Notes: generated from the letters alone by a model not told the origin. 64,000 bases of DNA from Giardia intestinalis (GCA_000002435.2 CM018792.1), one strand, 5' to 3'; shown: positions 22,832 through 42,074, counted from the first letter of the stretch. Program-made: numbers and translations.

Positions 22832-24735
22832 TCACGCCTTCCCCCTGCACAGGAACCACCAGCAGAGGAAGCCCACGAGGCCCCCCACGACGACGACCAC
22901 AGCGACGGAGATCCCCGCGATGGCCCCCGTGGAGAGCCCGCCCCTGTTGGCGCCAGAGGACACACAGGAGGCCCCAGCATCATCAGGGCTGTACCCATCG
23001 TTGCACACACAGACAGAGTTATCATCAGTGGAGTTGCTGGGACAGCCATCCACGCATGACTTCCTCCCAGGGCTCACCTTCCCACTACTACATGCCTCGC
23101 ACATGTCATCCCTGTTGGGCTTCTTACTACTGTCACAGGAGGTACAGACAGCGGGGGCCATACCACCATCAGACAGAGCTGCTGGGGCTGTACACTGGGA
23201 GCAGCCCTCTACCCCCACATATGCCTTAGCAGTATTACCAGTGCCTGTCAGTGTGCCTAGGGGTTACTACAAGCCAACACAGACTGATCAGTGTTGGATG
23301 CACCAGGCACTACGAAGTACCTATTGTTGGCTGCTTCTGTGCAGATCCCAGTATTACCTGCTGTCTTGCACATGAAGCTACCAGGAGCCTTCTGAGTGCT
23401 ATAACAGCCACCCATGTATAGGAAGTAGTTGTTGGTGCACTGTGTACATACACCATTAGCACAAGTATTCCCAGCCTTTTGAGCCTCACTAGCACAGAGA
23501 CCATCTATAGGAGCTTGTGAACTATCTCCACAATAGGAACAGTAGTGCTTTGTGGTGCCCTGATCATCTATTACGATGGCATCACAAGAGCCAGCTGTCC
23601 CCCCACAAGCCGTGGGGTCCTCGCAGGTCTTCTCTGTGCATGTATAGTTGTCTGAGGTTCCAGCGGGCTTCCTGTTAGGCTTGCACTTTGTGCACTTGAG
23701 AGGTCCTGTAGACTCCTTTGTGCACTCGGCACACCCATCGATGCCCCCCTGTGCATTATCACAAGCAACGCACTCACCAGTAGGACCATTGCCTTTCATG
23801 AAGAACCCAGGCTTGCATGTATCACACTTATCATTGCCAGTTTGAGTGCAGGTGGCACAGTTAGCACCTGGACAAGCGGTGCATGTAACCGTACCACTAC
23901 CACTACTGTAGTATCCATCGAGGCACTCCGAGCAGGTCGGCGGTGTCGCCGAGTCCTTGGTACACTTCTTACACCCGGCAATGCCCTGGTAATTTGGATC
24001 GGCTCCAGCTGAAACGGTACTGCATAAAACACATGTTTTGTCCTCCTTCATAAATAGGGCCTCGTCAGCGCCTTTACATCCAGCGTAGTCTTTTGTCACG
24101 CACGTCGAGGTCCCATCAAGGGCCGTCCTGGGGATCTTACTGTTATCACAAGCTGTGCACTTCGGCTTCTTGGTAGTCGAATCAACCTCACACTGGGTAC
24201 ATGCTTGATCTATCGTGTTGCAAGGAAGGCACTTCCCCGACTCCGGGTCAGCATAAGTGTTTCCAGTGCATCCATTATTATTCACGCATGACTTGTCAGT
24301 CTTCAGGTACTTCCCCTCTGGGCACGATGTACAATGATTCTGACCACTTCCATCGCAGGTCAGACAGGACGGATCACACTGCTTGCATTCGTTATTCTCT
24401 TTATAGTACCCTGCTTGGCACTCAGTGCACGTGGCAGGTCCTGGACTATTAGTTGGTTCCGTGCACTTGAGGCAGTTAGCCACCCCCGTATATCCATCTG
24501 CTCCCTTGGTATCCCAGCAGAGGATGCACTCCCTTCCCTTCTCTGATGGTGTAGCAGGGTTCTTGAACAGGCCGTTAGCTGTATTACACTCAGTGCACAC
24601 TCCATTACTGGCTGCTGTGCATATCTCACTGCCAGGGTGTGCATCCTTGTTGTAGCACCCGCCCATGAAGAGGAGTCTCATACTATCACTATCACCCCCA
24701 CACCACATAGCACTATCACTATCACTGTACAGCAT
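22832..24735 (-). pseudogene. VSP unit 0 (N-module A', middle X, C-terminal type 1), frameshifted by loss of one G in a G5 run
   Basis: At 23260-23263 the + strand reads cctaggggttactac (G4), whereas every other X-type unit reads cctagggggttactac (G5). This splits the unit into ORFs 23257..24735 and 22832..23218. Last unit of the array. Confidence 0.65.
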
Positions 24736-24740
24736 TCACT
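24734..24740 (-). promoter_or_regulatory. Giardia-type polyadenylation signal AGTGAAT (AGTRAAY) 6 nt after the unit-1 stop codon, overlapping the unit-0 ATG (AGTGAATG). The same motif recurs at every unit junction and after the last unit (22820..22826)
   Basis: + strand attcact (reverse complement AGTGAAT) at 24734-24740. The identical arrangement occurs at 26630-26636, 28551-28557, 30422-30428, 32226-32232, 34101-34107, 36015-36021, 37932-37938 and 39763-39769 (by periodicity). Consensus AGTPuAAPy is the known Giardia polyA signal. Confidence 0.55.
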
Positions 24741-24747
24741 ACCTAAG

Positions 24748-26631
24748 TCACGCCTTCCCCCTGCACAGGAACCACCAGCAGAGGAAGCCCACGAGGCCCC
24801 CCACGACAGCGACCACGGCGACGGCAATGCCCGCGATGGCCCCCGTGCTGAGGCCGCTCCTATTACTGCCAGAGGACACACAGGAGGCCCCAGCATCATC
24901 AGGGCTGTACCCATCGTTGCACACACAGACAGAGTTATCATCAGTGGAGTTGCTGGGACAGCCATCCACGCATGACTTCCTCCCAGGGCTCACCTTCCCA
25001 CTACTACATGCCTCGCACATGTCATCCCTGTTGGGCTTCTTACTACTGTCACAGGAGGTACAGACAGCGGGGGCCATACCACCATCAGACAGAGCTGCTG
25101 GGGCTGTACACTGGGAGCAGCCCTCTACCCCGACGTATGCCTTAGTATCTACTAGTGTGCCTAATGGGTTGCCACAGGCCAGGACAGACTGATCAGTGTT
25201 GGATGCACCAGGGACTACGAAGTACTTATTATTCTCATTGGCAGCTGTACACTTACCATCGGCTGCTGTCTTGCACATGAGGCTTCCTGGTTCTGTATCA
25301 TACTTATAACACCCACCCATGTACAAGAAGTAGTTGTTAGTGCATTGTGTACATACACCTTGATCACATTGATTATTTGCTTTAGCACTATTACACTTCC
25401 CATCTATAGGATACGTATTAGCTTCTCCACAGTATGAGCAATAATGATGCTCTACACCCTTATCATCAATCACTATTGCATCGCAGGCACCAGAGGTACC
25501 ACCACAAGCCGTGGGGTCTTCACATGTCTTCACACATGTATAGTCATCCCCCGCATCTCCATTGGATTGCTTCCTGTAGTTAGGCTTACATTCAGTGCAC
25601 TTGAACCCATTATTGTTAGAACATAGACTACAGCCTTCACGGCCACCATCTGTTGTACTGTCACAAGCAACGCACTCACCAGTAGAGCCGGGTTGTTTCA
25701 TGAAGAATCCAGGCTTGCATTTAGTGCACTTATCATTGCCAGCTTGAGTGCAGGTGGCACAGTTGGCACCACAGGCTTCACATGTAACCGTACCACCATT
25801 TCCACTATTGTAATATCCGTCGAGGCACTCCGAGCAGGTCGGCTTGGCTCCGTTCTTCTTACATGTTTTACACCCAGGCGTCCCTTTATTAGCTTCTAAA
25901 CTTTCACTATCATCACTACACAATATGCACTTGGTGCTACCATCATTTAGAAAGTGGGATCCGTCAACGTTACTTGTTGCGCACCCATTTGCATCGACAC
26001 AGGTTGTCGTGCCATCGATGGCCGTCTTCACCATCTTCTGACCACCGCAGTTAGTGCACTTCGGCTTCTTGGTAGTCGAATCAACCTCACACTGGGTACA
26101 TGCTTGATCTATCGTGTTGCAAGGAAGGCACTTCCCCGACTCCGGGTCAGCATAAGTGTTTCCAGTGCATCCATTATTATTCACGCATGACTTGTCAGTC
26201 TTCAGGTACTTCCCCTCTGGACACGATGTGCAATGATTCGGACCACTTCCATCGCAGGTCAGACAGGACTGATCACACTTCTCACATGCATCACCCTTCT
26301 TAATGTATCCATCTTGGCAGACAGTGCATGTGGCCGGTCCGCTAGTGCCCGTGTGGGAGCATTCTGAGCATCCAGCGACTCCCATGACCCCGTTTCTATC
26401 TATAGTATCGGAGCACAAGATGCACTCACTACCCTTCTCTGATGGTGTAACTGGGTTCTTGAACAGGCCGTTAGCTGTATTACAAGCAGTGCACAGTCCT
26501 CCCTCAGCCTTTGTGCATATCTCACTGCCAGGGTGTGCATCCTTGTTGTAGCACCCGCCCATGAAGAGGAGTCTCATACTATCACTATCACCCCCACACC
26601 ACATAGCACTATCACTATCACTGTACAGCAT
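24748..26631 (-). CDS. VSP unit 1 (N-module A, middle Y, C-terminal type 1); ATG start but no signal peptide
   Basis: 627-aa intact ORF with ATG at 26629-26631 (cat). Ends FLCWWFLCRGKA, stop at 24748-24750. Confidence 0.8.
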   Translation of the reverse strand: MLYSDSDSAMWCGGDSDSMRLLFMGGCYNKDAHPGSEICTKAEGGLCTACNTANGLFKNPVTPSEKGSECILCSDTIDRNGVMGVAGCSECSHTGTSGPATCTVCQDGYIKKGDACEKCDQSCLTCDGSGPNHCTSCPEGKYLKTDKSCVNNNGCTGNTYADPESGKCLPCNTIDQACTQCEVDSTTKKPKCTNCGGQKMVKTAIDGTTTCVDANGCATSNVDGSHFLNDGSTKCILCSDDSESLEANKGTPGCKTCKKNGAKPTCSECLDGYYNSGNGGTVTCEACGANCATCTQAGNDKCTKCKPGFFMKQPGSTGECVACDSTTDGGREGCSLCSNNNGFKCTECKPNYRKQSNGDAGDDYTCVKTCEDPTACGGTSGACDAIVIDDKGVEHHYCSYCGEANTYPIDGKCNSAKANNQCDQGVCTQCTNNYFLYMGGCYKYDTEPGSLMCKTAADGKCTAANENNKYFVVPGASNTDQSVLACGNPLGTLVDTKAYVGVEGCSQCTAPAALSDGGMAPAVCTSCDSSKKPNRDDMCEACSSGKVSPGRKSCVDGCPSNSTDDNSVCVCNDGYSPDDAGASCVSSGSNRSGLSTGAIAGIAVAVVAVVGGLVGFLCWWFLCRGKA

Positions 26632-26643
26632 TCACTACCTAAG

Positions 26644-28552
26644 TCACGCCTTCCCCCTGCACAGGAACCACCAGCAGAGGAAGCCCACGAGGCCCCCCAC
26701 GACAGCGACCACGGCGACGGCAATGCCCGCGATGGCCCCCGTGCGGAGGCCGCTCCTATTACTGCCAGAGGACACACAGGAGGCCCCAGCATCATCAGGG
26801 CTGTACCCATCGTTGCACACACAGACAGAGTTATCATCAGTGGAGTTGCTGGGACAGCCATCCACGCATGACTTCCTCCCAGGGCTCACCTTCCCACTAC
26901 TACATGCCTCGCACATGTCATCCCTGTTGCAGTGGGAGCATCCCTCAATAGCACATGCGAAGCACCCACTACCATCCCTGTTGGGCTTCTTACTACTGTC
27001 ACAGGAGGTACACACAGCAGCAGTCATGCCACCATCAGATGGAGCTGCTGGGGCTGTACATGCTGAGCAGCCATCCACCCCAACGTATGCCTTAGTATCT
27101 ACTAGTGTGCCTAATGGGTTACCACATGCCAATACAGACTGATTCTGATTGGTTGCCCCTGGGACTACGAAGTACTTATTATTGGCCGCCTCTGTGCATA
27201 TCCCATTGTTACCTGCGGTCTTGCACATGTAGTTGCCTGGTGGACTCTGAGTGCTATAACAGCCACCCATGTACAAGAAGTAGTTGTTAGTGCATTGTGT
27301 ACATACACCTTGATCACATTGATTATTTGCTTTAGCACTATTACACTTCCCATCTATAGGATACGTATTAGCTTCTCCACAGTATGAGCAATAATGATGC
27401 TCTACACCCTTATCATCAATCACTATGGCATCACAGGCACCAGAGGTACCACCACAAGCAGTGTCATCCTCACAGGTCTTCACACATGTATAGTCATCCC
27501 CCGCATCTCCATTGGATTGCTTCCTGTAGTTAGGCTTACATTCAGTGCACTTGAACCCATTATTGTTAGAACATAGACTACAGCCTTCACGGCCACCATC
27601 TGTTGTACTGTCACAAGCAACGCACTCACCAGTAGAGCCGGGTTGTTTCATGAAGAATCCAGGCTTGCATTTAGTGCACTTATCATTGCCAGCTTGAGTG
27701 CAGGTGGCACAGTTGGCACCACAGGCTTCACATGTAACCGTACCACCATTCCACTATGTAATATCCGTCGAGGCACTCCGAGCAGGTCGGCTTGGCTCCG
27801 TTCTTTACATGTTTACACCCGGCGTCCCTTTATTAGCTTCTAAACTTACTCATACAACACATGCTTGGTGCTCCATCATAGAATGGGATCCGTCACGTTA
27901 CTTGCGCAGCCTTTTGCATCGACACAGGTGTCGTGCCATCGATGGCCGTCTCACCATCTTCTGACCACCGCAGTGTGCACTTCGGCTTCTTGGTAGTCGA
28001 ATCAACCTCACACTGGGTACATGCTTGATCTATCGTGTTGCAAGGAAGGCACTTCCCCGACTCCGGGTCAGCATAAGTGTTTCCAGTGCATCCATTATTA
28101 TTCACGCATGACTTGTCAGTCTTCAGGTACTTCCCCTCTGGACACGATGTGCAATGATTCGGACCACTTCCATCGCAGGTCAGACAGGACTGATCACACT
28201 TCTCACATGCATCACCCTTCTTAATGTATCCATCTTGGCAGACAGTGCATGTGGCCGGTCCGCTAGTGCCCGTGTGGGAGCATTCTGAGCATCCAGCGAC
28301 TCCCATGACCCCGTTTCTATCTATAGTATCGGAGCACAAGATGCACTCACTACCCTTCTCTGATGGTGTAACTGGGTTCTTGAACAGGCCGTTAGCTGTA
28401 TTACAAGCAGTGCACAGTCCTCCCTCAGCCTTTGTGCATATCTCACTGCCAGGGTGTGCATCCTTGTTGTAGCACCCGCCCATGAAGAGGAGTCTCATAC
28501 TATCACTATCACCCCCACACCACATAGCACTATCACTATCACTGTACAGCAT
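26644..28552 (-). pseudogene. VSP unit 2, decayed. The N-module A piece (27893..28552) and the middle-Y/C-terminal piece (26644..27651) are separated by a ~250-bp zone with at least 6 small deletions relative to unit 1
   Basis: Alignment of 27740..27960 with 25790..26060 shows multiple 1-3 nt deletions (e.g. accaccatttccactattgtaatatcc vs accaccattccactatgtaatatcc). Also an 18-aa insertion (GSGCFACAIEGCSHCNRD) in the C-terminal module. Confidence 0.7.
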
Positions 28553-28564
28553 TCACTACCTAAG

Positions 28565-30358
28565 TCACGCCTTCCCCCTGCACAGGAACCACCAGCAGAG
28601 GAAGCCCACGAGGCCCCCCACGACAGCGACCACGGCGACGGCAATGCCCGCGATGGCCCCCGTGCGGAGGCCGCTCCTATTACTGCCAGAGGACACACAG
28701 GAGGCCCCAGCATCATCAGGGCTGTACCCATCGTTGCACACACAGACAGAGTTATCATCAGTGGAGTTGCTGGGACAGCCATCCACGCATGACTTCCTCC
28801 CAGGGCTCACCTTCCCACTACTACATGCCTCGCACATGTCATCCCTGTTGGGCTTCTTACTACTGTCACAGGAGGTACAGACAGCGGGGGCCATACCACC
28901 ATCAGACAGAGCTGCTGGGGCTGTACACTGGGAGCAGCCCTCTACCCCCACATATGCCTTAGCAGTATTACCAGTGCCTGTCAGTGTGCCTAGGGGGTTA
29001 CTACAAGCCAACACAGACTGATCAGTGTTGGATGCACCAGGCACTACGAAGTACCTATTGTTGGCTGCTTCTGTGCAGATCCCAGTATTACCTGCTGTCT
29101 TGCACATGAAGCTACCAGGAGCCTTCTGAGTGCTATAACAGCCACCCATGTATAGGAAGTAGTTGTTGGTGCACTGTGTACATACACCATTAGCACAAGT
29201 ATTCCCAGCCTTTTGAGCCTCACTAGCACAGAGACCATCTATAGGAGCTTGTGAACTATCTCCACAATAGGAACAGTAGTGCTTTGTGGTGCCCTGATCA
29301 TCTATTACGATGGCATCACAAGAGCCAGCTGTCCCCCCACAAGCCGTGGGGTCCTCGCAGGTCTTCTCTGTGCATGTATAGTTGTCTGAGGTTCCAGCGG
29401 GCTTCCTGTTAGGCTTGCACTTTGTGCACTTGAGAGGTCCTGTAGACTCCTTTGTGCACTCGGCACACCCATCGATGCCCCCCTGTGCATTATCACAAGC
29501 AACGCACTCACCAGTAGGACCATTGCCTTTCATGAAGAACCCAGGCTTGCATGTATCACACTTATCATTGCCAGTTTGAGTGCAGGTGGCACAGTTAGCA
29601 CCTGGACAAGCGGTGCATGTAACCGTACCACTACCACTACTGTAGTATCCATCGAGGCACTCCGAGCAGGTCGGCGGTGTCGCCGAGTCCTTGGTACACT
29701 TCTTACACCCGGCAATGCCCTGGTCATTTGGATCGGCTCCAGCTGAAACGGTACTGCATAAAACACATGTTTTGTCCTCCTTCATAAATAGGGCCTCGTC
29801 AGCGCCTTTACATCCAGCGTAGTCTTTTGTCACGCACGTCGAGGTCCCATCAAGGGCCGTCCTGGGGATCTTACTGTTATCACAAGCTGTGCACTTCGGC
29901 TTCTTGGTAGTCGAATCAACCTCACACTGGGTACATGCTTGATCTATCGTGTTGCAAGGAAGGCACTTCCCCGACTCCGGGTCAGCATAAGTGTTTCCAG
30001 TGCATCCATTATTATTCACGCATGCATTATCCTTCAGGAACGTATTTCCCTTACAAGAGGTACACTGGGTCGCCGACGTCTCACAGGTCAGGCAAGAGTC
30101 GTTGCACTTCTCACATGCCCCGTTACTATTTAGAAAGTATCCCTCTGTGCAGGTATCACATGTAGCTGCTCCTGCATTCTGTGGTGCCGTACATGTGGCG
30201 CAGTTCTCCACTCCCTTTGTCGCGCCATCTCCCACCGTGTCCCAGCACAGGATGCACTCCCTTCCCTTCTCTGGTGTTGCAGCCGGGTTCTGGAATATGT
30301 ACTGGTTATCTACCTTACAAGCAGTGCACACTCCACTACTGACCTTTGTGCATATCAC
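28565..30358 (-). CDS. VSP unit 3 (N-module B, middle X, C-terminal type 1). No ATG-initiated ORF: the junction ATG at 30421-30423 gives MLYNV* and an expanded TATCAC repeat
   Basis: 597-aa ORF from GTG: ICTKVSSGVCTACKVDNQ...; ends FLCRGKA. Confidence 0.75.
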   Translation of the reverse strand: MICTKVSSGVCTACKVDNQYIFQNPAATPEKGRECILCWDTVGDGATKGVENCATCTAPQNAGAATCDTCTEGYFLNSNGACEKCNDSCLTCETSATQCTSCKGNTFLKDNACVNNNGCTGNTYADPESGKCLPCNTIDQACTQCEVDSTTKKPKCTACDNSKIPRTALDGTSTCVTKDYAGCKGADEALFMKEDKTCVLCSTVSAGADPNDQGIAGCKKCTKDSATPPTCSECLDGYYSSGSGTVTCTACPGANCATCTQTGNDKCDTCKPGFFMKGNGPTGECVACDNAQGGIDGCAECTKESTGPLKCTKCKPNRKPAGTSDNYTCTEKTCEDPTACGGTAGSCDAIVIDDQGTTKHYCSYCGDSSQAPIDGLCASEAQKAGNTCANGVCTQCTNNYFLYMGGCYSTQKAPGSFMCKTAGNTGICTEAANNRYFVVPGASNTDQSVLACSNPLGTLTGTGNTAKAYVGVEGCSQCTAPAALSDGGMAPAVCTSCDSSKKPNRDDMCEACSSGKVSPGRKSCVDGCPSNSTDDNSVCVCNDGYSPDDAGASCVSSGSNRSGLRTGAIAGIAVAVVAVVGGLVGFLCWWFLCRGKA

Positions 30359-30420
30359 ACTCCACTATCACCCTATCACCCTCTATCACCCACTATCACC
30401 CATTATCACACATTGTACAG
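30352..30420. repeat. Variable-copy microrepeat (core TATCAC on the + strand, GTGATA on the coding strand) at unit junctions. About 5 copies at this junction versus 2 at 32164..32239 and 39701..39776. The same core forms the MLYSDSDSAMWCGGDSDS N-terminal codons of the A-type units
   Basis: 30356..30410: ccactatcac cctatcac cctctatcac ccactatcac ccattatcac a. The A-type junction (e.g. 24681..24732) reads catactatcactatcacccccacaccacatagcactatcactatcactgtacag. Confidence 0.7.
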
Positions 30421-30435
30421 CATTCACTACCTAAG

Positions 30436-32163
30436 TCACGCCTTCCCTCTACACACGAACCACCAGCAGAGGAACCCTATGAGACCCCCCACGACGACGA
30501 CCACAGCGACGGAGATCCCCGCGATGGCCCCCGTGGAGAGCCCGCCCCTGTTGGCGCCAGAGGACACACACTTACCACCCTCTAGACTGTATCCATCAAC
30601 ACACTCCCCACATATATTATCCATCACACAGCTCTTGCAGTTGGTGTCAGAGCATGTCACACACCCAGTGCCATCCTTGTTGGGCACCTTACTATTGTCA
30701 CAGGAGGTACACACAGCAGCAGTCATGCCAGCTGTTGTTAGAGCTGCTGGGGCTGTACACTGGGAGCAGCCCTCTACCCCCACATATGCCTTAGCAGTAT
30801 TACCAGTGCCTGTCAGTGTGCCAAGGGGGTTACTACAAGCCAACACAGACTGATCAGTGTTGGATGCACCAGGCACTACGAAGTACCTATTGTTGGCTGC
30901 TTCTGTGCAGATCCCAGTATTACCTGCTGTCTTGCACATGAAGCTACCAGGAGCCTTCTGAGTGCTATAACAGCCACCCATGTATAGGAAGTAGTTGTTG
31001 GTGCACTGTGTACATACACCATTAGCACAAGTATTCCCAGCCTTTTGAGCCTCACTAGCACAGAGACCATCTATAGGAGCTTGTGAACTATCTCCACAAT
31101 AGGAACAGTAGTGCTTTGTGGTGCCCTGATCATCTATTACGATGGCATCACAAGAGCCAGCTGTCCCCCCACAAGCCGTGGGGTCCTCGCAGGTCTTCTC
31201 TGTGCATGTATAGTTGTCTGAGGTTCCAGCGGGCTTCCTGTTAGGCTTGCACTTTGTGCACTTGAGAGGTCCTGTAGACTCCTTTGTGCACTCGGCACAC
31301 CCATCGATGCCCCCCTGTGCATTATCACAAGCAACGCACTCACCAGTAGGACCATTGCCTTTCATGAAGAACCCAGGCTTGCATGTATCACACTTATCAT
31401 TGCCAGTTTGAGTGCAGGTGGCACAGTTAGCACCTGGACAAGCGGTGCATGTAACCGTACCACTACCACTACTGTAGTATCCATCGAGGCACTCCGAGCA
31501 GGTCGGCGGTGTCGCCGAGTCCTTGGTACACTTCTTACACCCGGCAATGCCCTGGTAATTTGGATCGGCTCCAGCTGAAACGGTACTGCATAAAACACAT
31601 GTTTTGTCCTCCTTCATAAATAGGGCCTCGTCAGCGCCTTTACATCCAGCGTAGTCTTTTGTCACGCACGTCGAGGTCCCATCAAGGGCCGTCCTGGGGA
31701 TCTTACTGTTATCACAAGCTGTGCACTTCGGCTTCTTGGTAGTCGAATCAACCTCACACTGGGTACATGCTTGATCTATCGTGTTGCAAGGAAGGCACTT
31801 CCCCGACTCCGGGTCAGCATAAGTGTTTCCAGTGCATCCATTATTATTCACGCATGCATTATCCTTCAGGAACGTATTTCCCTTACAAGAGGTACACTGG
31901 GTCGCCGACGTCTCACAGGTCAGGCAAGAGTCGTTGCACTTCTCACATGCCCCGTTACTATTTAGAAAGTATCCCTCTGTGCAGGTATCACATGTAGCTG
32001 CTCCTGCATTCTGTGGTGCCGTACATGTGGCGCAGTTCTCCACTCCCTTTGTCGCGCCATCTCCCACCGTGTCCCAGCACAGGATGCACTCCCTTCCCTT
32101 CTCTGGTGTTGCAGCCGGGTTCTGGAATATGTACTGGTTATCTACCTTACAAGCAGTGCACAC
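30436..32163 (-). CDS. VSP unit 4 (N-module B, middle X, C-terminal type 2, ending FVCRGKA). No ATG-initiated ORF: the junction ATG gives MLYNV*
   Basis: ORF opens at GTG: (V)CTACKVDNQYIFQNPAATPEKGRECILCWDT... A 76-nt junction (32164..32239) separates it from unit 5. Confidence 0.75.
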   Translation of the reverse strand: MCTACKVDNQYIFQNPAATPEKGRECILCWDTVGDGATKGVENCATCTAPQNAGAATCDTCTEGYFLNSNGACEKCNDSCLTCETSATQCTSCKGNTFLKDNACVNNNGCTGNTYADPESGKCLPCNTIDQACTQCEVDSTTKKPKCTACDNSKIPRTALDGTSTCVTKDYAGCKGADEALFMKEDKTCVLCSTVSAGADPNYQGIAGCKKCTKDSATPPTCSECLDGYYSSGSGTVTCTACPGANCATCTQTGNDKCDTCKPGFFMKGNGPTGECVACDNAQGGIDGCAECTKESTGPLKCTKCKPNRKPAGTSDNYTCTEKTCEDPTACGGTAGSCDAIVIDDQGTTKHYCSYCGDSSQAPIDGLCASEAQKAGNTCANGVCTQCTNNYFLYMGGCYSTQKAPGSFMCKTAGNTGICTEAANNRYFVVPGASNTDQSVLACSNPLGTLTGTGNTAKAYVGVEGCSQCTAPAALTTAGMTAAVCTSCDNSKVPNKDGTGCVTCSDTNCKSCVMDNICGECVDGYSLEGGKCVSSGANRGGLSTGAIAGISVAVVVVVGGLIGFLCWWFVCRGKA

Positions 32164-32239
32164 TCCACTACTGGCCTGTGTGCATATCTCACTCCACTAT
32201 CACCCATTATCACACATTGTACAGCATTCACTACCTAAG

Positions 32240-34102: not shown

Positions 34103-34114
34103 TCACTACCTAAG

Positions 34115-36016
34115 TCACGCCTTCCCCCTGCACAGGAACCACCAGCAGAGGAAGCCCACGAGGCCCCCCACGACAGCGACCACGGCGACGGCAATGCCCG
34201 CGATGGCCCCCGTGCGGAGGCCGCTCCTATTACTGCCAGAGGACACACAGGAGGCCCCAGCATCATCAGGGCTGTACCCATCGTTGCACACACAGACAGA
34301 GTTATCATCAGTGGAGTTGCTGGGACAGCCATCCACGCATGACTTCCTCCCAGGGCTCACCTTCCCACTACTACATGCCTCGCACATGTCATCCCTGTTG
34401 GGCTTCTTACTACTGTCACAGGAGGTACAGACAGCGGGGGCCATACCACCATCAGACAGAGCTGCTGGGGCTGTACACTGGGAGCAGCCCTCTACCCCCA
34501 CATATGCCTTAGCAGTATTACCAGTGCCTGTCAGTGTGCCAAGGGGGTTACTACAAGCCAACACAGACTGATCAGTGTTGGATGCACCAGGCACTACGAA
34601 GTACCTATTGTTGGCTGCTTCTGTGCAGATCCCAGTATTACCTGCTGTCTTGCACATGAAGCTACCAGGAGCCTTCTGAGTGCTATAACAGCCACCCATG
34701 TATAGGAAGTAGTTGTTGGTGCACTGTGTACATACACCATTAGCACAAGTATTCCCAGCCTTTTGAGCCTCACTAGCACAGAGACCATCTATAGGAGCTT
34801 GTGAACTATCTCCACAATAGGAACAGTAGTGCTTTGTGGTGCCCTGATCATCTATTACGATGGCATCACAAGAGCCAGCTGTCCCCCCACAAGCCGTGGG
34901 GTCCTCGCAGGTCTTCTCTGTGCATGTATAGTTGTCTGAGGTTCCAGCGGGCTTCCTGTTAGGCTTGCACTTTGTGCACTTGAGAGGTCCTGTAGACTCC
35001 TTTGTGCACTCGGCACACCCATCGATGCCCCCCTGTGCATTATCACAAGCAACGCACTCACCAGTAGGACCATTGCCTTTCATGAAGAACCCAGGCTTGC
35101 ATGTATCACACTTATCATTGCCAGTTTGAGTGCAGGTGGCACAGTTAGCACCTGGACAAGCGGTGCATGTAACCGTACCACTACCACTACTGTAGTATCC
35201 ATCGAGGCACTCCGAGCAGGTCGGCGGTGTCGCCGAGTCCTTGGTACACTTCTTACACCCGGCAATGCCCTGGTAATTTGGATCGGCTCCAGCTGAAACG
35301 GTACTGCATAAAACACATGTTTTGTCCTCCTTCATAAATAGGGCCTCGTCAGCGCCTTTACATCCAGCGTAGTCTTTTGTCACGCACGTCGAGGTCCCAT
35401 CAAGGGCCGTCCTGGGGATCTTACTGTTATCACAAGCTGTGCACTTCGGCTTCTTGGTAGTCGAATCAACCTCACACTGGGTACATGCTTGATCTATCGT
35501 GTTGCAAGGAAGGCACTTCCCCGACTCCGGGTCAGCATAAGTGTTTCCAGTGCATCCATTATTATTCACGCATGACTTGTCAGTCTTCAGGTACTTCCCC
35601 TCTGGACACGATGTGCAATGATTCGGACCACTTCCATCGCAGGTCAGACAGGACTGATCACACTTCTCACATGCATCACCCTTCTTAATGTATCCATCTT
35701 GGCAGACAGTGCATGTGGCCGGTCCGCTAGTGCCCGTGTGGGAGCATTCTGAGCATCCAGCGACTCCCATGACCCCGTTTCTATCTATAGTATCGGAGCA
35801 CAAGATGCACTCACTACCCTTCTCTGATGGTGTAACTGGGTTCTTGAACAGGCCGTTAGCTGTATTACAAGCAGTGCACAGTCCTCCCTCAGCCTTTGTG
35901 CATATCTCACTGCCAGGGTGTGCATCCTTGTTGTAGCACCCGCCCATGAAGAGGAGTCTCATACTATCACTATCACCCCCACACCACATAGCACTATCAC
36001 TATCACTGTACAGCAT
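34115..36016 (-). CDS. VSP unit 6 (N-module A, middle X, C-terminal type 1); ATG start but no signal peptide
   Basis: 633-aa intact ORF. N-terminal 190 aa identical to units 1, 2 and 5; middle identical to units 0, 3, 4, 5 and 7. Confidence 0.8.
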   Translation of the reverse strand: MLYSDSDSAMWCGGDSDSMRLLFMGGCYNKDAHPGSEICTKAEGGLCTACNTANGLFKNPVTPSEKGSECILCSDTIDRNGVMGVAGCSECSHTGTSGPATCTVCQDGYIKKGDACEKCDQSCLTCDGSGPNHCTSCPEGKYLKTDKSCVNNNGCTGNTYADPESGKCLPCNTIDQACTQCEVDSTTKKPKCTACDNSKIPRTALDGTSTCVTKDYAGCKGADEALFMKEDKTCVLCSTVSAGADPNYQGIAGCKKCTKDSATPPTCSECLDGYYSSGSGTVTCTACPGANCATCTQTGNDKCDTCKPGFFMKGNGPTGECVACDNAQGGIDGCAECTKESTGPLKCTKCKPNRKPAGTSDNYTCTEKTCEDPTACGGTAGSCDAIVIDDQGTTKHYCSYCGDSSQAPIDGLCASEAQKAGNTCANGVCTQCTNNYFLYMGGCYSTQKAPGSFMCKTAGNTGICTEAANNRYFVVPGASNTDQSVLACSNPLGTLTGTGNTAKAYVGVEGCSQCTAPAALSDGGMAPAVCTSCDSSKKPNRDDMCEACSSGKVSPGRKSCVDGCPSNSTDDNSVCVCNDGYSPDDAGASCVSSGSNRSGLRTGAIAGIAVAVVAVVGGLVGFLCWWFLCRGKA

Positions 36017-36028
36017 TCACTACCTAAG

Positions 36029-37933
36029 TCACGCCTTCCCCCTGCACAGGAACCACCAGCAGAGGAAGCCCACGAGGCCCCCCACGACAGCGACCACGGC
36101 GACGGCAATGCCCGCGATGGCCCCCGTGCTGAGGCCGCTCCTATTACTGCCAGAGGACACACAGGAGGCCCCAGCATCATCAGGGCTGTACCCATCGTTG
36201 CACACACAGACAGAGTTATCATCAGTGGAGTTGCTGGGACAGCCATCCACGCATGACTTCCTCCCAGGGCTCACCTTCCCACTACTACATGCCTCGCACA
36301 TGTCATCCCTGTTGGGCTTCTTACTACTGTCACAGGAGGTACAGACAGCGGGGGCCATACCACCATCAGACAGAGCTGCTGGGGCTGTACACTGGGAGCA
36401 GCCCTCTACCCCCACATATGCCTTAGCAGTATTACCAGTGCCTGTCAGTGTGCCAAGGGGGTTACTACAAGCCAACACAGACTGATCAGTGTTGGATGCA
36501 CCAGGCACTACGAAGTACCTATTGTTGGCTGCTTCTGTGCAGATCCCAGTATTACCTGCTGTCTTGCACATGAAGCTACCAGGAGCCTTCTGAGTGCTAT
36601 AACAGCCACCCATGTATAGGAAGTAGTTGTTGGTGCACTGTGTACATACACCATTAGCACAAGTATTCCCAGCCTTTTGAGCCTCACTAGCACAGAGACC
36701 ATCTATAGGAGCTTGTGAACTATCTCCACAATAGGAACAGTAGTGCTTTGTGGTGCCCTGATCATCTATTACGATGGCATCACAAGAGCCAGCTGTCCCC
36801 CCACAAGCCGTGGGGTCCTCGCAGGTCTTCTCTGTGCATGTATAGTTGTCTGAGGTTCCAGCGGGCTTCCTGTTAGGCTTGCACTTTGTGCACTTGAGAG
36901 GTCCTGTAGACTCCTTTGTGCACTCGGCACACCCATCGATGCCCCCCTGTGCATTATCACAAGCAACGCACTCACCAGTAGGACCATTGCCTTTCATGAA
37001 GAACCCAGGCTTGCATGTATCACACTTATCATTGCCAGTTTGAGTGCAGGTGGCACAGTTAGCACCTGGACAAGCGGTGCATGTAACCGTACCACTACCA
37101 CTACTGTAGTATCCATCGAGGCACTCCGAGCAGGTCGGCGGTGTCGCCGAGTCCTTGGTACACTTCTTACACCCGGCAATGCCCTGGTCATTTGGATCGG
37201 CTCCAGCTGAAACGGTACTGCATAAAACACATGTTTTGTCCTCCTTCATAAATAGGGCCTCGTCAGCGCCTTTACATCCAGCGTAGTCTTTTGTCACGCA
37301 CGTCGAGGTCCCATCAAGGGCCGTCCTGGGGATCTTACTGTTATCACAAGCTGTGCACTTCGGCTTCTTGGTAGTCGAATCAACCTCACACTGGGTACAT
37401 GCTTGATCTATCGTGTTGCAAGGAAGGCACTTCCCCGACTCCGGGTCAGCATAAGTGTTTCCAGTGCATCCATTATTATTCACGCATGACTTGTCAGTCT
37501 TCAGGTACTTCCCCTCTGGGCACGATGTACAATGATTCTGACCACTTCCATCGCAGGTCAGACAGGACGGATCACACTGCTTGCATTCGTTATTCTCTTT
37601 ATAGTACCCTGCTTGGCACTCAGTGCACGTGGCAGGTCCTGGACTATTAGTTGGTTCCGTGCACTTGAGGCAGTTAGCCACCCCCGTATATCCATCTGCT
37701 CCCTTGGTATCCCAGCAGAGGATGCACTCCCTTCCCTTCTCTGATGGTGTAGCAGGGTTCTTGAACAGGCCGTTAGCTGTATTACACTCAGTGCACACTC
37801 CATTACTGGCTGCTGTGCATATCTCACTGCCAGGGTGTGCATCCTTGTTGTAGCACCCGCCCATGAAGAGGAGTCTCATACTATCACTATCACCCCCACA
37901 CCACATAGCACTATCACTATCACTGTACAGCAT
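36029..37933 (-). CDS. VSP unit 7 (N-module A', middle X, C-terminal type 1); ATG start but no signal peptide
   Basis: MLYSDSDSAMWCGGDSDSMRLLFMGGCYNKDAHPGSEICTAASNGVCTEC... ; ends FLCRGKA; intact 634-aa ORF. Confidence 0.8.
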   Translation of the reverse strand: MLYSDSDSAMWCGGDSDSMRLLFMGGCYNKDAHPGSEICTAASNGVCTECNTANGLFKNPATPSEKGRECILCWDTKGADGYTGVANCLKCTEPTNSPGPATCTECQAGYYKENNECKQCDPSCLTCDGSGQNHCTSCPEGKYLKTDKSCVNNNGCTGNTYADPESGKCLPCNTIDQACTQCEVDSTTKKPKCTACDNSKIPRTALDGTSTCVTKDYAGCKGADEALFMKEDKTCVLCSTVSAGADPNDQGIAGCKKCTKDSATPPTCSECLDGYYSSGSGTVTCTACPGANCATCTQTGNDKCDTCKPGFFMKGNGPTGECVACDNAQGGIDGCAECTKESTGPLKCTKCKPNRKPAGTSDNYTCTEKTCEDPTACGGTAGSCDAIVIDDQGTTKHYCSYCGDSSQAPIDGLCASEAQKAGNTCANGVCTQCTNNYFLYMGGCYSTQKAPGSFMCKTAGNTGICTEAANNRYFVVPGASNTDQSVLACSNPLGTLTGTGNTAKAYVGVEGCSQCTAPAALSDGGMAPAVCTSCDSSKKPNRDDMCEACSSGKVSPGRKSCVDGCPSNSTDDNSVCVCNDGYSPDDAGASCVSSGSNRSGLSTGAIAGIAVAVVAVVGGLVGFLCWWFLCRGKA

Positions 37934-37945
37934 TCACTACCTAAG

Positions 37946-39700
37946 TCACGCCTTCCCCCTGCACAGGAACCACCAGCAGAGGAAGCCCACGAGGCCCCCC
38001 ACGACAGCGACCACGGCGACGGCAATGCCCGCGATGGCCCCCGTGCGGAGGCCGCTCCTATTACTGCCAGAGGACACACAGGAGGCCCCAGCATCATCAG
38101 GGCTGTACCCATCGTTGCACACACAGACAGAGTTATCATCAGTGGAGTTGCTGGGACAGCCATCCACGCATGACTTCCTCCCAGGGCTCACCTTCCCACT
38201 ACTACATGCCTCGCACATGTCATCCCTGTTGGGCTTCTTACTACTGTCACAGGAGGTACAGACAGCGGGGGCCATACCACCATCAGACAGAGCTGCTGGG
38301 GCTGTACACTGGGAGCAGCCCTCTACCCCGACGTATGCCTTAGTATCTACTAGTGTGCCTAATGGGTTGCCACAGGCCAGGACAGACTGATCAGTGTTGG
38401 ATGCACCAGGGACTACGAAGTACTTATTATTCTCATTGGCAGCTGTACACTTACCATCGGCTGCTGTCTTGCACATGAGGCTTCCTGGTTCTGTATCATA
38501 CTTATAACACCCACCCATGTACAAGAAGTAGTTGTTAGTGCATTGTGTACATACACCTTGATCACATTGATTATTTGCTTTAGCACTATTACACTTCCCA
38601 TCTATAGGATACGTATTAGCTTCTCCACAGTATGAGCAATAATGATGCTCTACACCCTTATCATCAATCACTATTGCATCGCAGGCACCAGAGGTACCAC
38701 CACAAGCAGTGTCATCCTCACAGGTCTTCACACATGTATAGTCATCCCCCGCATCTCCATTGGATTGCTTCCTGTAGTTAGGCTTACATTCAGTGCATTT
38801 GAATCCACCAGTGTTAGAGCATGCACTGCACCCTTCGCGGCCCTTATTGTCCACACTGTCGCATGAGACACACTCACCAGGGGCGCCACTCTTCAGGAAG
38901 AACCCGGGCTTGCAGGTTTGGCACTGGTTAGCATTAGCGCTGTTGCAGGTGGCACAGTTGGTCCCACAGGGCTTGCAGGTGGTATCAAAGTAGAATCCAG
39001 GGAGGCATTCTGAGCAGATTGGAGGCTGTGCCAGGTCGGTTTTCTTACACCCACTGCACTCAGCAATTCCCTTGTTGGGGGCGGTTCCTCCGGTAGCGCT
39101 GCATAGTATGCAACTGTTCTCATCCTGGCTTAGGAAGTGTGTTCCCACTGTGTTTAGCGCTGCACATCCCGCCTTATCCACGCACTCTGTTGATCCATCG
39201 ACATACCCTTTAAGGAGAGGCTTGGCTCCCCCACAGGCGGTGCACTTCGGCTTCTGTAGCTTTGCATCGTACGTGCAAGCAGTGCACTCTGGTATGCCCC
39301 CCTGATCTGCTCCAGCGTTACAAGCTATGCACTTGCCGGTGCTTGGGTCGGGGTACTTATCTCCATTACAACTGCTAGCATCTACACAATTATTCCCATC
39401 GAGATACTTCTCGCCCGCACAGAGGGTGCACTTAGTTGCGCCCTCACCGCTGCAAGTCAGACAAGCTTCATTACATTTGACACATGCACCGTTACCATCT
39501 TTATAGTACCCTGCTTGACACTCTGTACACGTGGCAGGTCCTGCATTCCCCGGTGCTGTACACTTGAGGCAGTTGGCCACTCCTTTGTTCTCATTCGCTC
39601 CCGTGGCATCATGACAGAGGATGCACTCCCCACCAGGGGTCACCTTCTCTGCCTTGTTCTGGAATATGTACTGACTATCTGTATTACACTCAGTGCACAC
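37946..39700 (-). CDS. VSP unit 8 (N-module type C, middle Y, C-terminal type 1). 5'-truncated: no signal peptide; the ORF opens with GTG, and the unit's junction ATG is closed after 5 codons (MLYNV*)
   Basis: Begins (V)CTECNTDSQYIFQNKAEK... immediately after the junction repeat. Ends FLCWWFLCRGKA. Confidence 0.75.
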   Translation of the reverse strand: MCTECNTDSQYIFQNKAEKVTPGGECILCHDATGANENKGVANCLKCTAPGNAGPATCTECQAGYYKDGNGACVKCNEACLTCSGEGATKCTLCAGEKYLDGNNCVDASSCNGDKYPDPSTGKCIACNAGADQGGIPECTACTYDAKLQKPKCTACGGAKPLLKGYVDGSTECVDKAGCAALNTVGTHFLSQDENSCILCSATGGTAPNKGIAECSGCKKTDLAQPPICSECLPGFYFDTTCKPCGTNCATCNSANANQCQTCKPGFFLKSGAPGECVSCDSVDNKGREGCSACSNTGGFKCTECKPNYRKQSNGDAGDDYTCVKTCEDDTACGGTSGACDAIVIDDKGVEHHYCSYCGEANTYPIDGKCNSAKANNQCDQGVCTQCTNNYFLYMGGCYKYDTEPGSLMCKTAADGKCTAANENNKYFVVPGASNTDQSVLACGNPLGTLVDTKAYVGVEGCSQCTAPAALSDGGMAPAVCTSCDSSKKPNRDDMCEACSSGKVSPGRKSCVDGCPSNSTDDNSVCVCNDGYSPDDAGASCVSSGSNRSGLRTGAIAGIAVAVVAVVGGLVGFLCWWFLCRGKA

Positions 39701-39776
39701 TCCACTACTGGCCTGTGTGCATATCTCACTCCACTATCACCCATTATCACACATTGTACAGCATTCACTACCTAAG

Positions 39777-42074
39777 TCACGCCTTCCCCCTGCAGATGAA
39801 CCACCAGCAGAGGAACCCTATGAGACCCCCCACGACGACGACCACAGCGACGGAGATCCCCGCGATGGCCCCCGTGGAGAGCCCGCCCCTGTTGGCGCCA
39901 GAGGACACACACATGCCATCCCTCGGGACATAGCCCTCCTCGCACTCCCCGCAGACGCCCTCTGCGCTGCACCGCATGCACCTCTCTATGTCACAGACAA
40001 TGCACTGGGTGCCGTCCAGGCTGGGTCTCTGGTCTTTATTGGTACATGCCTCACACTTGTTGTCTGCGCTGCAGTGAGAGCAGCCCTGGGCCGGACACAC
40101 ATAGCAGGTGCTTCCAGCCATGTTGGGCTTCTTATTGTCCTCAGCACACACCTCGCACATCCCGTCGATGGCGCAGCTCTTGCACCCGCCGACCGCACAC
40201 AGGGTGCACCCGCTGCCATCCTTGTTGGGCTTCTTCGTCTTGTCGCACGCACTACAGACCGCCGCGGCCATCGCATTGGCGGCTGGCGCCTGCGGGGCCG
40301 CGCACGCCGTGCAGTCTAGCACGCCGACGTACGCCTTGTCGCCCGCGGTCGCTCCCACAGGGTTGCCACAGGCAAGCACGGACTGCTGAGCAGCAGAGTC
40401 CCCGGGAATCTTGAAGTAGCGCCCGACCGGTGTGGTGCAGAACCCACTTGGAGCCGCAGAGCACATGAGGTTGCCAGGAGCCTTCGACACATCATAGCAA
40501 CCACCCATATAGAGGAAGTAGTTGTTGGTGCACCGCGTACATACGCCATCGGCGCAGGTATTACCTGCAAGTGCATTGGTGCACTTCCCATTAATAGGGC
40601 CATAGCCGGCGCCAACACACTTTGAACAGTAAGAGAGCATGCTGCCGTCGTTGCCGACCACGATGGCGTCGCAGGCCCCTGCTGTCCCTCCACATGCAGT
40701 CTCATCTTCACAGGTCTTTGTACATGTGAGGTCGCTAGGTTCTCCGCTGGGTCTGTAGTTGGGCTTACATTCAGTGCATTTGAGGGACCCCACGCCGCCT
40801 GTGCACTCGACACAGCCTGGAATCCCACTTGTCTCGTCATCACAGAGAACGCATGTCTTAGGCGGGCCATCCTTAAGGAAGTACCCCGGCATGCATCTTG
40901 TACATGTGTTGATTTGACCCGCTGTTCCGCACTCTGCGCAGTTTCCTGTGCAGGCCTCGCAGGCGTTTCCGTTGACTTTATACCCGTCGACACAAGCCTC
41001 GCAGGTGCCTTTTGCGGTGCACAGCTTGCAGTTCTGGACTCCGCCCTTACCATTGTCGCCGCACTGCACGCACTTCGAGGCGTCGTAGAAGTGCGTCTTG
41101 CCCACTTTGCACTCGGCCTCATCAACACAGGTCGTTGTCCCATCCAGCTCGTCTCTGACCGTCTTACTACCGCAGTCGGTGCACTTCGGCTTTCCCGTGG
41201 CGTCGTCGTATGCACACGCGGTGCATCCTTGTATCTCACTGCAGGCCTTACAGGTCCAGGTCTTCTTGTCCGCATAGTTACCATTGTCACATCCACCAGC
41301 ATCTACACAAGTGTTACCACCCTTCAAGTACTTCCCCTCAACGCAGGCGGTACACTGAGTCGGAGTATCAGCTGAGCAAGCAGAGCAGCCGTCTCCGCAC
41401 TTCACACATGCACTGCCCTTCGTAACGAACCCTGCTTGACACTCTGTACACGTGGCCGGTCCGCTAGTGCCCGTGTGGGAGCATTCTGAGCATCCAGCGA
41501 CTCCCATGACCCCGTTTCTATCTATAGTATCGGAGCACAAGATGCACTCGCTACCCTTCTCTGATGGTGTAACTGGGTTCTTGAACAGGCCGTTAGCTGT
41601 CTTACACTCAGTGCACAGTCCTCCCTCAGCCTTTGTGCATATCTCGCTGCCGGGCCCGTCGGTTGTCTTGTAGCACCCGCCCATGAAGAGGAAGTACCCG
41701 TCGCCGCACTTTCCGCAGGTGGTTGCCGTCTTGTCGAGGGCAGTCCCGTCTGCTTGGGTGCACCCGGCTGCCGCGGCCTGGGGGGAGCCGGGGGGCCAGC
41801 AGAAGCCGTCGACTGGGACGCCCCCGGTCTTGCACTCGGTGCAGATCTCTGTGCTACCGACCGTCTCGCACTTATCGGTCTGGCAGGTCGCTGTATGGTT
41901 CCCGTCTTGCTGGCAGGTCACTGCAAGCGCGCTCACCACGAACAGGGGTATCAGTAGAAAGGCTGTGGTGTGGACCGGATTGCGTGCAGCGGGTGGGGGT
42001 GCCCCGGCGGCCTCCTCTCTGAGACTCCCACTCCGAGGGTTGCCCCAGGGGGGAGCCCGCTGGCCTGGTCGCAC
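39777..42074 (-). CDS. VSP (variant-specific surface protein), head gene of the array: signal peptide, about 700-aa CXXC-rich ectodomain, TM and CRGKA. No in-frame ATG was found upstream of the signal peptide, and the ORF-track start is GTG
   Basis: TAFLLIPLFVVSALAVTC signal-like segment; GGCY motifs (FLFMGGCYKTTDGPG, FLYMGGCYDVSKAPG); about 35 CXXC motifs; C-terminus GAIAGISVAVVVVVGGLIGFLCWWFICRGKA. The unique N-terminal ~130 aa and the long C-terminal CXXC module are not shared with the downstream units. Confidence 0.8.
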   Translation of the reverse strand: MRPGQRAPPWGNPRSGSLREEAAGAPPPAARNPVHTTAFLLIPLFVVSALAVTCQQDGNHTATCQTDKCETVGSTEICTECKTGGVPVDGFCWPPGSPQAAAAGCTQADGTALDKTATTCGKCGDGYFLFMGGCYKTTDGPGSEICTKAEGGLCTECKTANGLFKNPVTPSEKGSECILCSDTIDRNGVMGVAGCSECSHTGTSGPATCTECQAGFVTKGSACVKCGDGCSACSADTPTQCTACVEGKYLKGGNTCVDAGGCDNGNYADKKTWTCKACSEIQGCTACAYDDATGKPKCTDCGSKTVRDELDGTTTCVDEAECKVGKTHFYDASKCVQCGDNGKGGVQNCKLCTAKGTCEACVDGYKVNGNACEACTGNCAECGTAGQINTCTRCMPGYFLKDGPPKTCVLCDDETSGIPGCVECTGGVGSLKCTECKPNYRPSGEPSDLTCTKTCEDETACGGTAGACDAIVVGNDGSMLSYCSKCVGAGYGPINGKCTNALAGNTCADGVCTRCTNNYFLYMGGCYDVSKAPGNLMCSAAPSGFCTTPVGRYFKIPGDSAAQQSVLACGNPVGATAGDKAYVGVLDCTACAAPQAPAANAMAAAVCSACDKTKKPNKDGSGCTLCAVGGCKSCAIDGMCEVCAEDNKKPNMAGSTCYVCPAQGCSHCSADNKCEACTNKDQRPSLDGTQCIVCDIERCMRCSAEGVCGECEEGYVPRDGMCVSSGANRGGLSTGAIAGISVAVVVVVGGLIGFLCWWFICRGKA

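Follow-up and report, generated by a model that had tools for sequence, protein, structure and literature searches.

A probably silent linear array of ten truncated or start-less VSP units on chromosome 4 of Giardia intestinalis WB

We analysed a 64,000-nucleotide (nt) stretch of Giardia intestinalis DNA (GCA_000002435.2 CM018792.1; hereafter the window) whose minus strand carries, between positions 22832 and 42164, ten head-to-tail units of variant-specific surface protein (VSP) coding sequence, each ending in a transmembrane (TM) segment, the CRGKA tail, a stop codon and a VSP polyadenylation signal. The locus is probably a silent linear array of VSP pseudogenes (psiVSPs) on chromosome 4 of isolate WB, which would serve at most as an evolutionary reservoir. 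Unit boundaries were set from the CRGKA stops (i.e. the lower coordinate of each unit in Table 1); Tandem Repeats Finder returned just a 10-nt microsatellite, the unit period of ∼1.9 kb being larger than its 500-nt limit. Ten minus-strand frames have the C-terminus ...FLCWWF(L/I/V)CRGKA-stop, and TM, CRGKA and stop are present in 10/10 units. The most upstream unit (U0, hereafter the head) measures 2.2 kb and the nine downstream units (U1–U9) 1804–1921 nt each; the count of ten holds for this assembly, in which kilobase-long stretches of 100% identity within a 19-kb array leave the copy number uncertain.

A CXXC ectodomain with the GGCY motif is recognized by the Pfam family PF03302 in U2 (E = 2e-46) and in the head (E = 6e-44). 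The head has an N-terminal domain of ∼95 aa before its first GGCY motif. This domain is missing from the nine downstream units, which open with either a junk peptide (MLYSDSDSAMWCGGDSDS, n = 6) or a 5-codon open reading frame (ORF, n = 3), and which retain the coding sequence from the first GGCY motif onward, i.e. about 575–645 of about 690–750 codons. An earlier reading of the window by a model (hereafter the sequence-only reading) had accurately described a 19-kb repeat of one head with a signal-like segment and nine 5'-truncated, 3'-complete units, and the two kinds of opening that it distinguished (a junk N-terminus and an ATG stopping after five codons) are seen at six and three junctions, respectively; its expression 'complete 3' half' is right about completeness but, given the share of codons kept, not about 'half'. 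On the plus strand, ORFs of 112 and 175–193 aa (24637–38390) recur once per unit, antisense to the VSP units. We rejected these repeated ORFs (112–193 aa) as genes; they appear to be periodic by-products of the repeat and of strand-biased composition.

The junctions between units share one order of elements: a polyadenylation motif lying over the stop, CTGTACA, a GT-rich GTGATAGT-type microsatellite and then in-frame VSP coding sequence. The extended polyadenylation motif ACTTAGRTAGTRAAYRY, as defined by Rodriguez-Walker et al. (2022), overlaps the stop of every unit (10 matches versus 0.17 expected), perfectly in nine units and with 2 mismatches in U9. Two junction types occur. The A-type (six units: U2, U3, U4, U7, U8 and U9) consists of TGA, 12 nt and an ATG leading into MLYSDSDSAMWCGGDSDSMRLLFMGGCY; the B-type (three units: U1, U5 and U6) reads ATG CTG TAC AAT GTG TGA, i.e. 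MLYNV*, and VSP homology restarts ∼45 nt deeper into the gene, at ...EICT, with the first true in-frame ATG 183–395 codons on. The ATG found 12 nt past the stop is the AATG within the polyadenylation motif (AGTGAATGC) and arises from that motif without marking a start of its own. From stop to resumed VSP homology, the spacer measures about 70–90 nt. The sequence-only reading had the units 12 nt apart with no room for a promoter: promoter absence stands, whereas the 12-nt figure is the distance to the ATG inside the polyadenylation motif and not the spacing of the units. An example of a k-mer unique to the junctions is CTGTACAGTGATAGTGATAGTGCTATGTGGTGTGGGGG.

The same junk N-terminus, MLYSDSDS(DS)AMWCGGDS..(L/F)FMGGCY, also opens members of other WB arrays (i.e. 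P0097 / vsp65, P0075 and P0073 / vsp60) whose ectodomains are only ∼50% identical, and in the assemblage E isolate P15, as in further Giardia assemblies, there are also ORFs whose start coincides with the first GGCY motif or slightly precedes it. Because the same junction is found in other arrays, the truncated unit with its junction seems to be an old, propagated design that is not peculiar to this locus. The spacer is a length-variable simple repeat, given that other-array members vary between SDSDS and SDSDSDS. Before U6, the microsatellite at 30362–30409 (period 10 nt; GTGATAGTGG-type as read on the coding strand) reaches ∼5 copies and is longer than at the other junctions. A retroposition origin, suggested by the 5' truncation and by ends near the mRNA cleavage site, is unsupported; the junctions contain only GTGATAGT repeats and no A-tract.

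We then examined start elements. No ATG occurs in any frame from the stop of the upstream gene (42165) to the Met of FLFMGGCY, as read directly from the sequence, and a GCC codon (41963–41961) occupies the position of the initiator Met of the paralogs P0030 and P0031. Intact paralogs (P0030, P0031 and P0150) open with MFQLIPLFVASALMAAC, whereas the head has ...TTAFLLIPLFVVSALAVTC (MFQLIPLF versus AFLLIPLF). The VSP initiator (Inr) YAATGTT (PyAatgTT) is absent from both strands between 18.5 and 51 kb, and comparison with neighbouring gene starts revealed no AT-rich initiator at the head or the junctions. The 42–44 kb region has 64% GC; the neighbouring housekeeping genes show A/T-rich stretches right before their ATG. 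Signal peptides were assessed with a hydropathy proxy, the maximum 9-residue Kyte–Doolittle mean of the N-terminus, which is 3.14 in the head, at most 1.4 in U1–U9 and 2.3–2.7 in intact VSPs, in agreement with the earlier statement that no unit but the head begins with a hydrophobic segment. Functional VSPs carry an ATG-initiated N-terminal signal peptide and a PyAatgTT initiator at the start codon. The former is lacking in all ten units (the head is hydrophobic but ATG-less and U1–U9 have no hydrophobic N-terminus), and the latter is lacking as well.

The loss of the head's ATG is no sequencing slip, because a VSP of the DH isolate (P0057, i.e. ESU34700.1) has the same ATG-less leader. The sequence-only reading took the head for an expression-competent gene. 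This has to be abandoned: the head appears to be dead, because it has no ATG, no VSP Inr, a leader of 64% GC and no protein annotated in the reference. That reading would itself have yielded to an unrecognized upstream exon. Such an exon, or splicing of the head's 5' end onto the units, was rejected: the array has no Giardia intron 3' motif, and no GTATGT lies near the GGCY motif of the head, the sole one being at 40544.

The ORFs on both sides of the array match exactly proteins of chromosome 4 of Giardia intestinalis WB C6 (ATCC 50803), assembly GL2.1. Accession numbers there follow chromosomal order, and KAE8304521 and KAE8304522 bracket the array. Because these flanking accessions are consecutive, no coding sequence is annotated inside the array, and the four unit ORFs that were looked up (U2, U3, U4 and U8) are absent from the protein collection. 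The reference therefore presumably regards the head and the nine downstream units alike as non-protein-coding, which is consistent with Xu et al. The older Sanger-based protein XP_001703902.1 (P0062, 645 aa) is identical to both halves of U7; Adam et al. (2010; PMC2996952) list the corresponding vsp213 / GL50803_114122 as a Clade I gene in a linear array ('LA'), without Inr and on an unplaced contig. U7 and U9 are frame-broken in this assembly. The U7 break is probably a consensus error of the long-read reference and not real decay, because the Sanger-era vsp213 protein (645 aa) runs unbroken across the stretch concerned (27750–27975), where ∼30 bases are missing relative to U8 in many gaps of 1–10 nt, several of which are single-base losses in short A runs. 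Short-read contigs (L001–L005) show 0 mismatches to the window, and those of four independent runs end at 22857–22863, just within the conserved tail of the last unit. Because they reproduce it, the distal array boundary is confirmed, and they also show why short reads cannot assemble the array.

These features agree with those of psiVSP linear arrays, i.e. at least three adjoining head-to-tail units with very short spacers (here ten units and ∼70–90 nt), downstream members that keep the 3' end without Inr, proper start or signal peptide, and listing as a linear-array member in the WB genome (here U7, as vsp213). Identity with the longest array of Adam et al. (2010), i.e. the ten-gene array of vsp56–65 on chromosome 4, was rejected, as its 650-, 887- and 662-aa members (P0073, P0136 and P0097) differ from these units.

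Within the array, U2–U9 are mutually 70–99% identical, U1, the most divergent of the downstream units, is 64–78% identical to the others and the head ∼60%. On a 60-column haplotype map, each unit is pieced together from two to five module alleles, with abrupt transitions between them. Six units contain stretches of 300 nt or more with 100% identity, and identical stretches between units extend to kilobase length. In 35/36 unit pairs, none of 1000 permutations of site order reached the longest observed run of identical polymorphic sites, and the four-gamete test fails for 29% of the informative pairs of sites. The near-identical tract in the head (Table 1) may be a gene-conversion or shared-ancestry tract, and the last 136 nt of the head are identical to U4. 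These patterns indicate that the units were probably shaped by repeated unequal crossing-over or gene conversion, not by simple duplication and drift.

Tracts of array sequence also occur in intact VSP genes elsewhere, as compared at the protein level only. Head residues 413–689 (277 aa) are identical to the intact chromosome 5 VSP P0030 (KAE8304683.1). This 748-aa protein matches vsp149 / GL50803_116477, by length and chromosome only, which Adam et al. (2010) list as the Inr-bearing first member of another array. P0031 (KAE8303325.1, GL50803 locus 114674, chromosome 3) has identical tracts of 46 to 51 residues with the head and U2. In the intact chromosome 4 VSP P0150 (KAE8304460.1, 689 aa), residues 216–615 are exact copies of array modules save one unmatched residue: residues 264–374 are found only in U8, residues 383–568 are of the U2–U6 type and the combination exists in no single unit. 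These 400 residues read as an exact chimera of two unit types (i.e. a U8-type and a U2-type module). Size and chromosome suggest vsp139 / VSP1269 as a candidate name for P0150. Shared tracts of this kind show that segments presumably move between the array and expressible VSP genes, and the P0150 chimera supports segmental gene conversion, apparently over evolutionary time and not as programmed switching.

On this basis, we suggest the following order of events. A Clade-I vsp gene would have been 5'-truncated at its first GGCY motif, leaving a unit that runs from this motif to TM–CRGKA, stop, polyadenylation signal and a short GT-rich filler. The unit would then have been multiplied head-to-tail by tandem duplication and unequal crossing-over. 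Since then, a small set of module alleles would have been reshuffled by gene conversion, both within the array and with intact Clade-I VSP genes at other loci. The array is predicted to be silent coding material, because the set of elements that VSP expression requires (PyAatgTT initiator, ATG and signal peptide) is found in no unit, head included. The lack of these three elements argues against expression of single units, and the polyadenylation signal closing each unit speaks against long read-through. The role of the array would be passive, as a reservoir or graveyard of ectodomain sequence that trades segments with expressible VSPs over evolutionary time. Such a reservoir agrees with the persistence of long ORFs and with the sharing of tracts with intact VSPs.

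Several points weigh against a silent reservoir: (i) the silence of the array is argued from its sequence; (ii) six units keep ORFs of 620–634 codons (and U7 645 in the older annotation), which is unexpected in decaying pseudogenes unless conversion refreshes them; (iii) the junction is conserved between arrays despite ectodomain identity of ∼50%, which could hint at constraint; (iv) the protein tracts shared with intact VSPs give neither the direction nor the date of exchange; and (v) epitope-tagged vsp213 has served as an expressible reporter in miRNA studies, although from constructs and not from this locus.

The array might be more active than this. Its segments could be copied by gene conversion into an expression-competent VSP during antigenic switching, with GGCY as the 5' homology and TM–CRGKA–polyadenylation signal as the 3' homology. 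The units are indeed flanked by two blocks conserved in all VSPs, P0150 combines two unit types exactly over 400 residues, the head and the intact P0030 have 277 identical residues in common, and the idea itself was raised by Adam et al. (2010; PMC2996952) and, for G. muris, by Xu et al. (2020; PMC7641422). We nevertheless consider an active bank of silent cassettes improbable: the adjoining head cannot be the expression site without ATG and Inr, the abstract of Adam et al. (2010) states that VSP switching is epigenetic, no somatic mosaic is reported in the Giardia VSP-array literature cited here, and the shared tracts are equally explained by ancient duplication or by conversion in the opposite direction. 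The same low probability applies to a donor bank working within the timescale of an infection, from which modules would be copied into Clade-I VSPs elsewhere (e.g. KAE8304460.1, ∼60 genes away) to make mosaic antigens, and which would include a function of the inter-unit element (polyadenylation motif, GT-rich microsatellite and GGCY motif) as a homology block or recombination hotspot. Mosaicism is evidence about evolution, and programmed recombinational switching does not appear to be supported. A role in RNA-based regulation seems unlikely too, if slightly less so. Read-through or antisense transcripts could feed the silencing of VSPs by RNAi or miRNAs, or sponge miRNAs through the conserved 3' ends; the literature gives validated target sites of miR2, miR4, miR6 and miR10 at the 3' end of vsp213 (U7), and strand-specific RNA-seq yields more antisense than sense reads at most VSP loci (Rodriguez-Walker et al.). 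On the other hand, there is no promoter-like element upstream of the head or in the junctions, the polyadenylation signal kept by every unit (nine perfect, one with 2 mismatches) should end read-through, no Rfam family reaches its gathering threshold in the window, and the psiVSP arrays of G. muris are essentially untranscribed (PMC7641422).

It is very unlikely that the array is an artefact of the long-read assembly, with dispersed full-length VSP genes mis-joined or the copy number inflated. Kilobase-long stretches of 100% identity between units, a cluster of homopolymer-type deletions in U7 that is typical of unpolished consensus, and the collapse of short-read assemblies at the array edge would fit such an error. 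However, the Sanger-era assembly already had this truncated unit with the junk N-terminus (P0062, i.e. XP_001703902.1 or vsp213), flagged as a linear-array member, the identical junction occurs in other arrays, short-read contigs of four independent runs reproduce the distal boundary exactly, and the junctions join 3' untranslated region to internal VSP sequence, which is impossible from dispersed full-length genes. We give even less credence to translation of the units from internal or junk ATGs into functional VSP-like proteins without signal peptide. Six or seven units do have long ATG-initiated ORFs, and one group localized tagged signal-peptide-less 'VSPs' to the membrane, work that Rodriguez-Walker et al. 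mention and criticise. By contrast, these ATGs are preceded by no Inr or AT-rich initiator, the first of them sits within the polyadenylation motif of the preceding unit, a hydrophobic N-terminus is lacking, three units have no ATG for 180–390 codons, and genes of this kind are treated as pseudogenes both by Rodriguez-Walker et al. (2022) and in the reference annotation.

A silent psiVSP array, as preferred here, belongs to a class that is already known. Adam et al. (2010; BMC Genomics 11:424; PMC2996952) found over half of the WB vsp genes in linear arrays, which comprise at most ten genes and have a mean spacer of 60 bp, reported Inr in 0 downstream array members and in 12/25 first members, gave statistical evidence of recombination and proposed the cassette or reservoir idea, their abstract describing VSP switching as an epigenetic mechanism. 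Arrays of psiVSPs that lack start codons and signal peptides are described by Xu et al. (2020; PMC7641422; PMC7000408) and by Rodriguez-Walker et al. (2022), the latter (bioRxiv) noting that pVSPs without the 5' portion lie 'in arrays of multiple pVSPs'; two of these three studies (Adam 2010, Xu 2020 and Rodriguez-Walker 2022) propose a recombination reservoir. The sequence-only reading was therefore wrong to call a silent-cassette arrangement undescribed for Giardia, since all three describe such arrays; this class of array and the hypothesis of cassettes were both published as early as 2010. The WB linear arrays (Adam 2010; Xu 2020, Sci Data 7:38; Rodriguez-Walker 2022) share with the present one the organism, the genome, head-to-tail Clade-I units and very short spacers, and also downstream members without Inr, start or signal peptide, complete 3' ends and evident recombination, and U7 is the published vsp213. 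There is no difference in kind; in 2010 this array existed only as fragments on unplaced contigs. What has apparently not been spelled out in these papers is the ATG-less head and the presence of array modules as an exact chimera in the intact KAE8304460.1.

The telomere-adjacent psiVSP arrays of G. muris (Xu 2020, Microb Genom 6:mgen000402) are similar in their tandem pseudogenes without signal peptides, which are apparently silent, show evidence of exchange with intact VSPs and have been read as a reservoir. The present array differs in being chromosome-internal, with housekeeping genes on both sides, and in its CRGKA tail instead of GCRGK. Xu et al. (2020; PMC7641422) liken the repertoire of G. 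muris, in which intact internal VSPs are few and the psiVSP arrays telomere-adjacent, to the systems of Trypanosoma and Pneumocystis. Promoter-less, 5'-incomplete copies, conserved homology blocks and segmental mosaicism are indeed shared with silent-cassette systems (e.g. the VSG arrays and mosaic VSGs of Trypanosoma brucei, Pneumocystis MSG and the bacterial pilS, vls and msp2 banks), and the conserved flanking blocks may act as recombination homology. Unlike these systems, no expression site is linked to this bank, whose head itself appears dead, and Giardia switching, which is not known to depend on recombination, is described as epigenetic or post-transcriptional. The likeness to silent cassettes drawn by the sequence-only reading thus extends to truncated donors with flanking homology and not to a linked expression site.

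The locus belongs to the reference genome of the Giardia isolate that has been studied best and has little weight as a discovery. Its value is that of a base-resolution worked example of GGCY truncation, of a junction that starts inside the polyadenylation signal, of a probably dead head and of combinatorial module alleles; three details may be worth retaining, namely the exact chimera found in KAE8304460.1, a head that lacks an ATG and has a duplicated leader, and the likely consensus errors of U7. If the donor-bank reading were true, a trypanosome-like layer of diversification would lie atop epigenetic VSP switching, and if mosaics were formed somatically, such arrays would be central to immune evasion by Giardia.

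Table 1. Coordinates of the array units, selected array features and flanking genes in the window; for the units, the lower coordinate is that of the CRGKA stop.
Feature	Position	Strand	Description
U0, head pseudo-VSP	39777..41963	-	Signal-like segment AFLLIPLFVVSALA (GCC for ATG), CXXC ectodomain, TM-CRGKA-stop
U1	37946..39776	-	B-type junction; MLYNV*, then in-frame VSP from ...CTECNTD; first true in-frame ATG at codon 395
U2	36029..37945	-	A-type junction; 634-codon ORF, junk N-terminus; 99.2% identity to U9
U3	34115..36028	-	A-type junction; 633-codon ORF
U4	32240..34114	-	A-type junction; 620-codon ORF; last 136 nt are the 3' end of the head
U5	30436..32239	-	B-type junction; first true in-frame ATG at codon 183
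U6	28565..30435	-	B-type junction; enlarged 10-nt microsatellite
U7	26644..28564	-	A-type junction; vsp213 / GL50803_114122 (645 aa, older annotation); frame-broken in this assembly
U8	24748..26643	-	A-type junction; 627-codon ORF; module allele of KAE8304460.1 residues 264-374
U9	22832..24747	-	A-type junction; final unit; 1-nt deletion at 23264 disrupts frame; unique flank beyond polyadenylation motif
GC-rich leader	41964..42164	-	Between GL50803_00111911 stop and hydrophobic segment of the head; no ATG, no AT-rich initiator
Representative A-type junction	35947..36028	-	Polyadenylation motif, CTGTACA, GTGATAGT filler, then homology restart at FMGGCY motif
Head tract	41452..41645	-	∼195 bp near-identical to U3, U4, U7 and U8 (exact blocks of 37, 50 and 98 nt); ∼60% identity elsewhere
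KAE8304520.1	14773-21171	+	GL50803_00112784
KAE8304521.1	21416-22576		Acyltransferase
KAE8304522.1	42165-43493	-	GL50803_00111911
KAE8304525.1	45436-50604		GL50803_0016869
KAE8304526.1	50588-52519	-	GL50803_00104234; annotated shorter, 569 aa
KAE8304528.1	52762-54480		GL50803_0011152

Some observations concern the flanks. The GC-rich gene directly upstream of the head, GL50803_00111911 (442 aa), has no Pfam match; at ≥90% identity it has at least three paralogs in WB (GL50803_00113952, 00114445 and 00d114445) and one in DH. Together with the ATG-less leader that the DH VSP ESU34700.1 has in common with the head, this suggests that a hypothetical gene and a dead array head form a segmentally duplicated module at several loci. 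In DH (an A2 isolate), orthologs of the flanking genes lie on separate contigs, i.e. DHA2_151766/67 and DHA2_151272/71 on contigs of 125,590 and 434,863 bp, respectively, and both contigs also hold partial VSPs that are top matches to the head (P0038 and P0040). Apparently the locus is VSP-occupied, and an assembly breakpoint, in DH too.

Annotated lengths differ for two of the neighbours. The window ORF of GL50803_00104234 has 643 aa, and its exact sequence is widespread in short-read assemblies, versus 569 aa in GL2.1, which suggests a different choice of start codon or an annotation difference. The plus-strand GL50803_00112784 (UniRef 'spindle pole protein') has 2132 aa in GL2.1, against 2203 aa both in DH and in the older annotation; in the window, the ORF of the longer form is open from 14560. 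Finally, the interval 43500–45400 between GL50803_00111911 and GL50803_0016869 is GC-elevated (54–64%) and is expected from the numbering to hold two proteins, KAE8304523 and KAE8304524; its largest ORF (44041–45375, which starts with TTG if the bacterial code is applied) lacks both a Pfam match and an entry in the protein collection.

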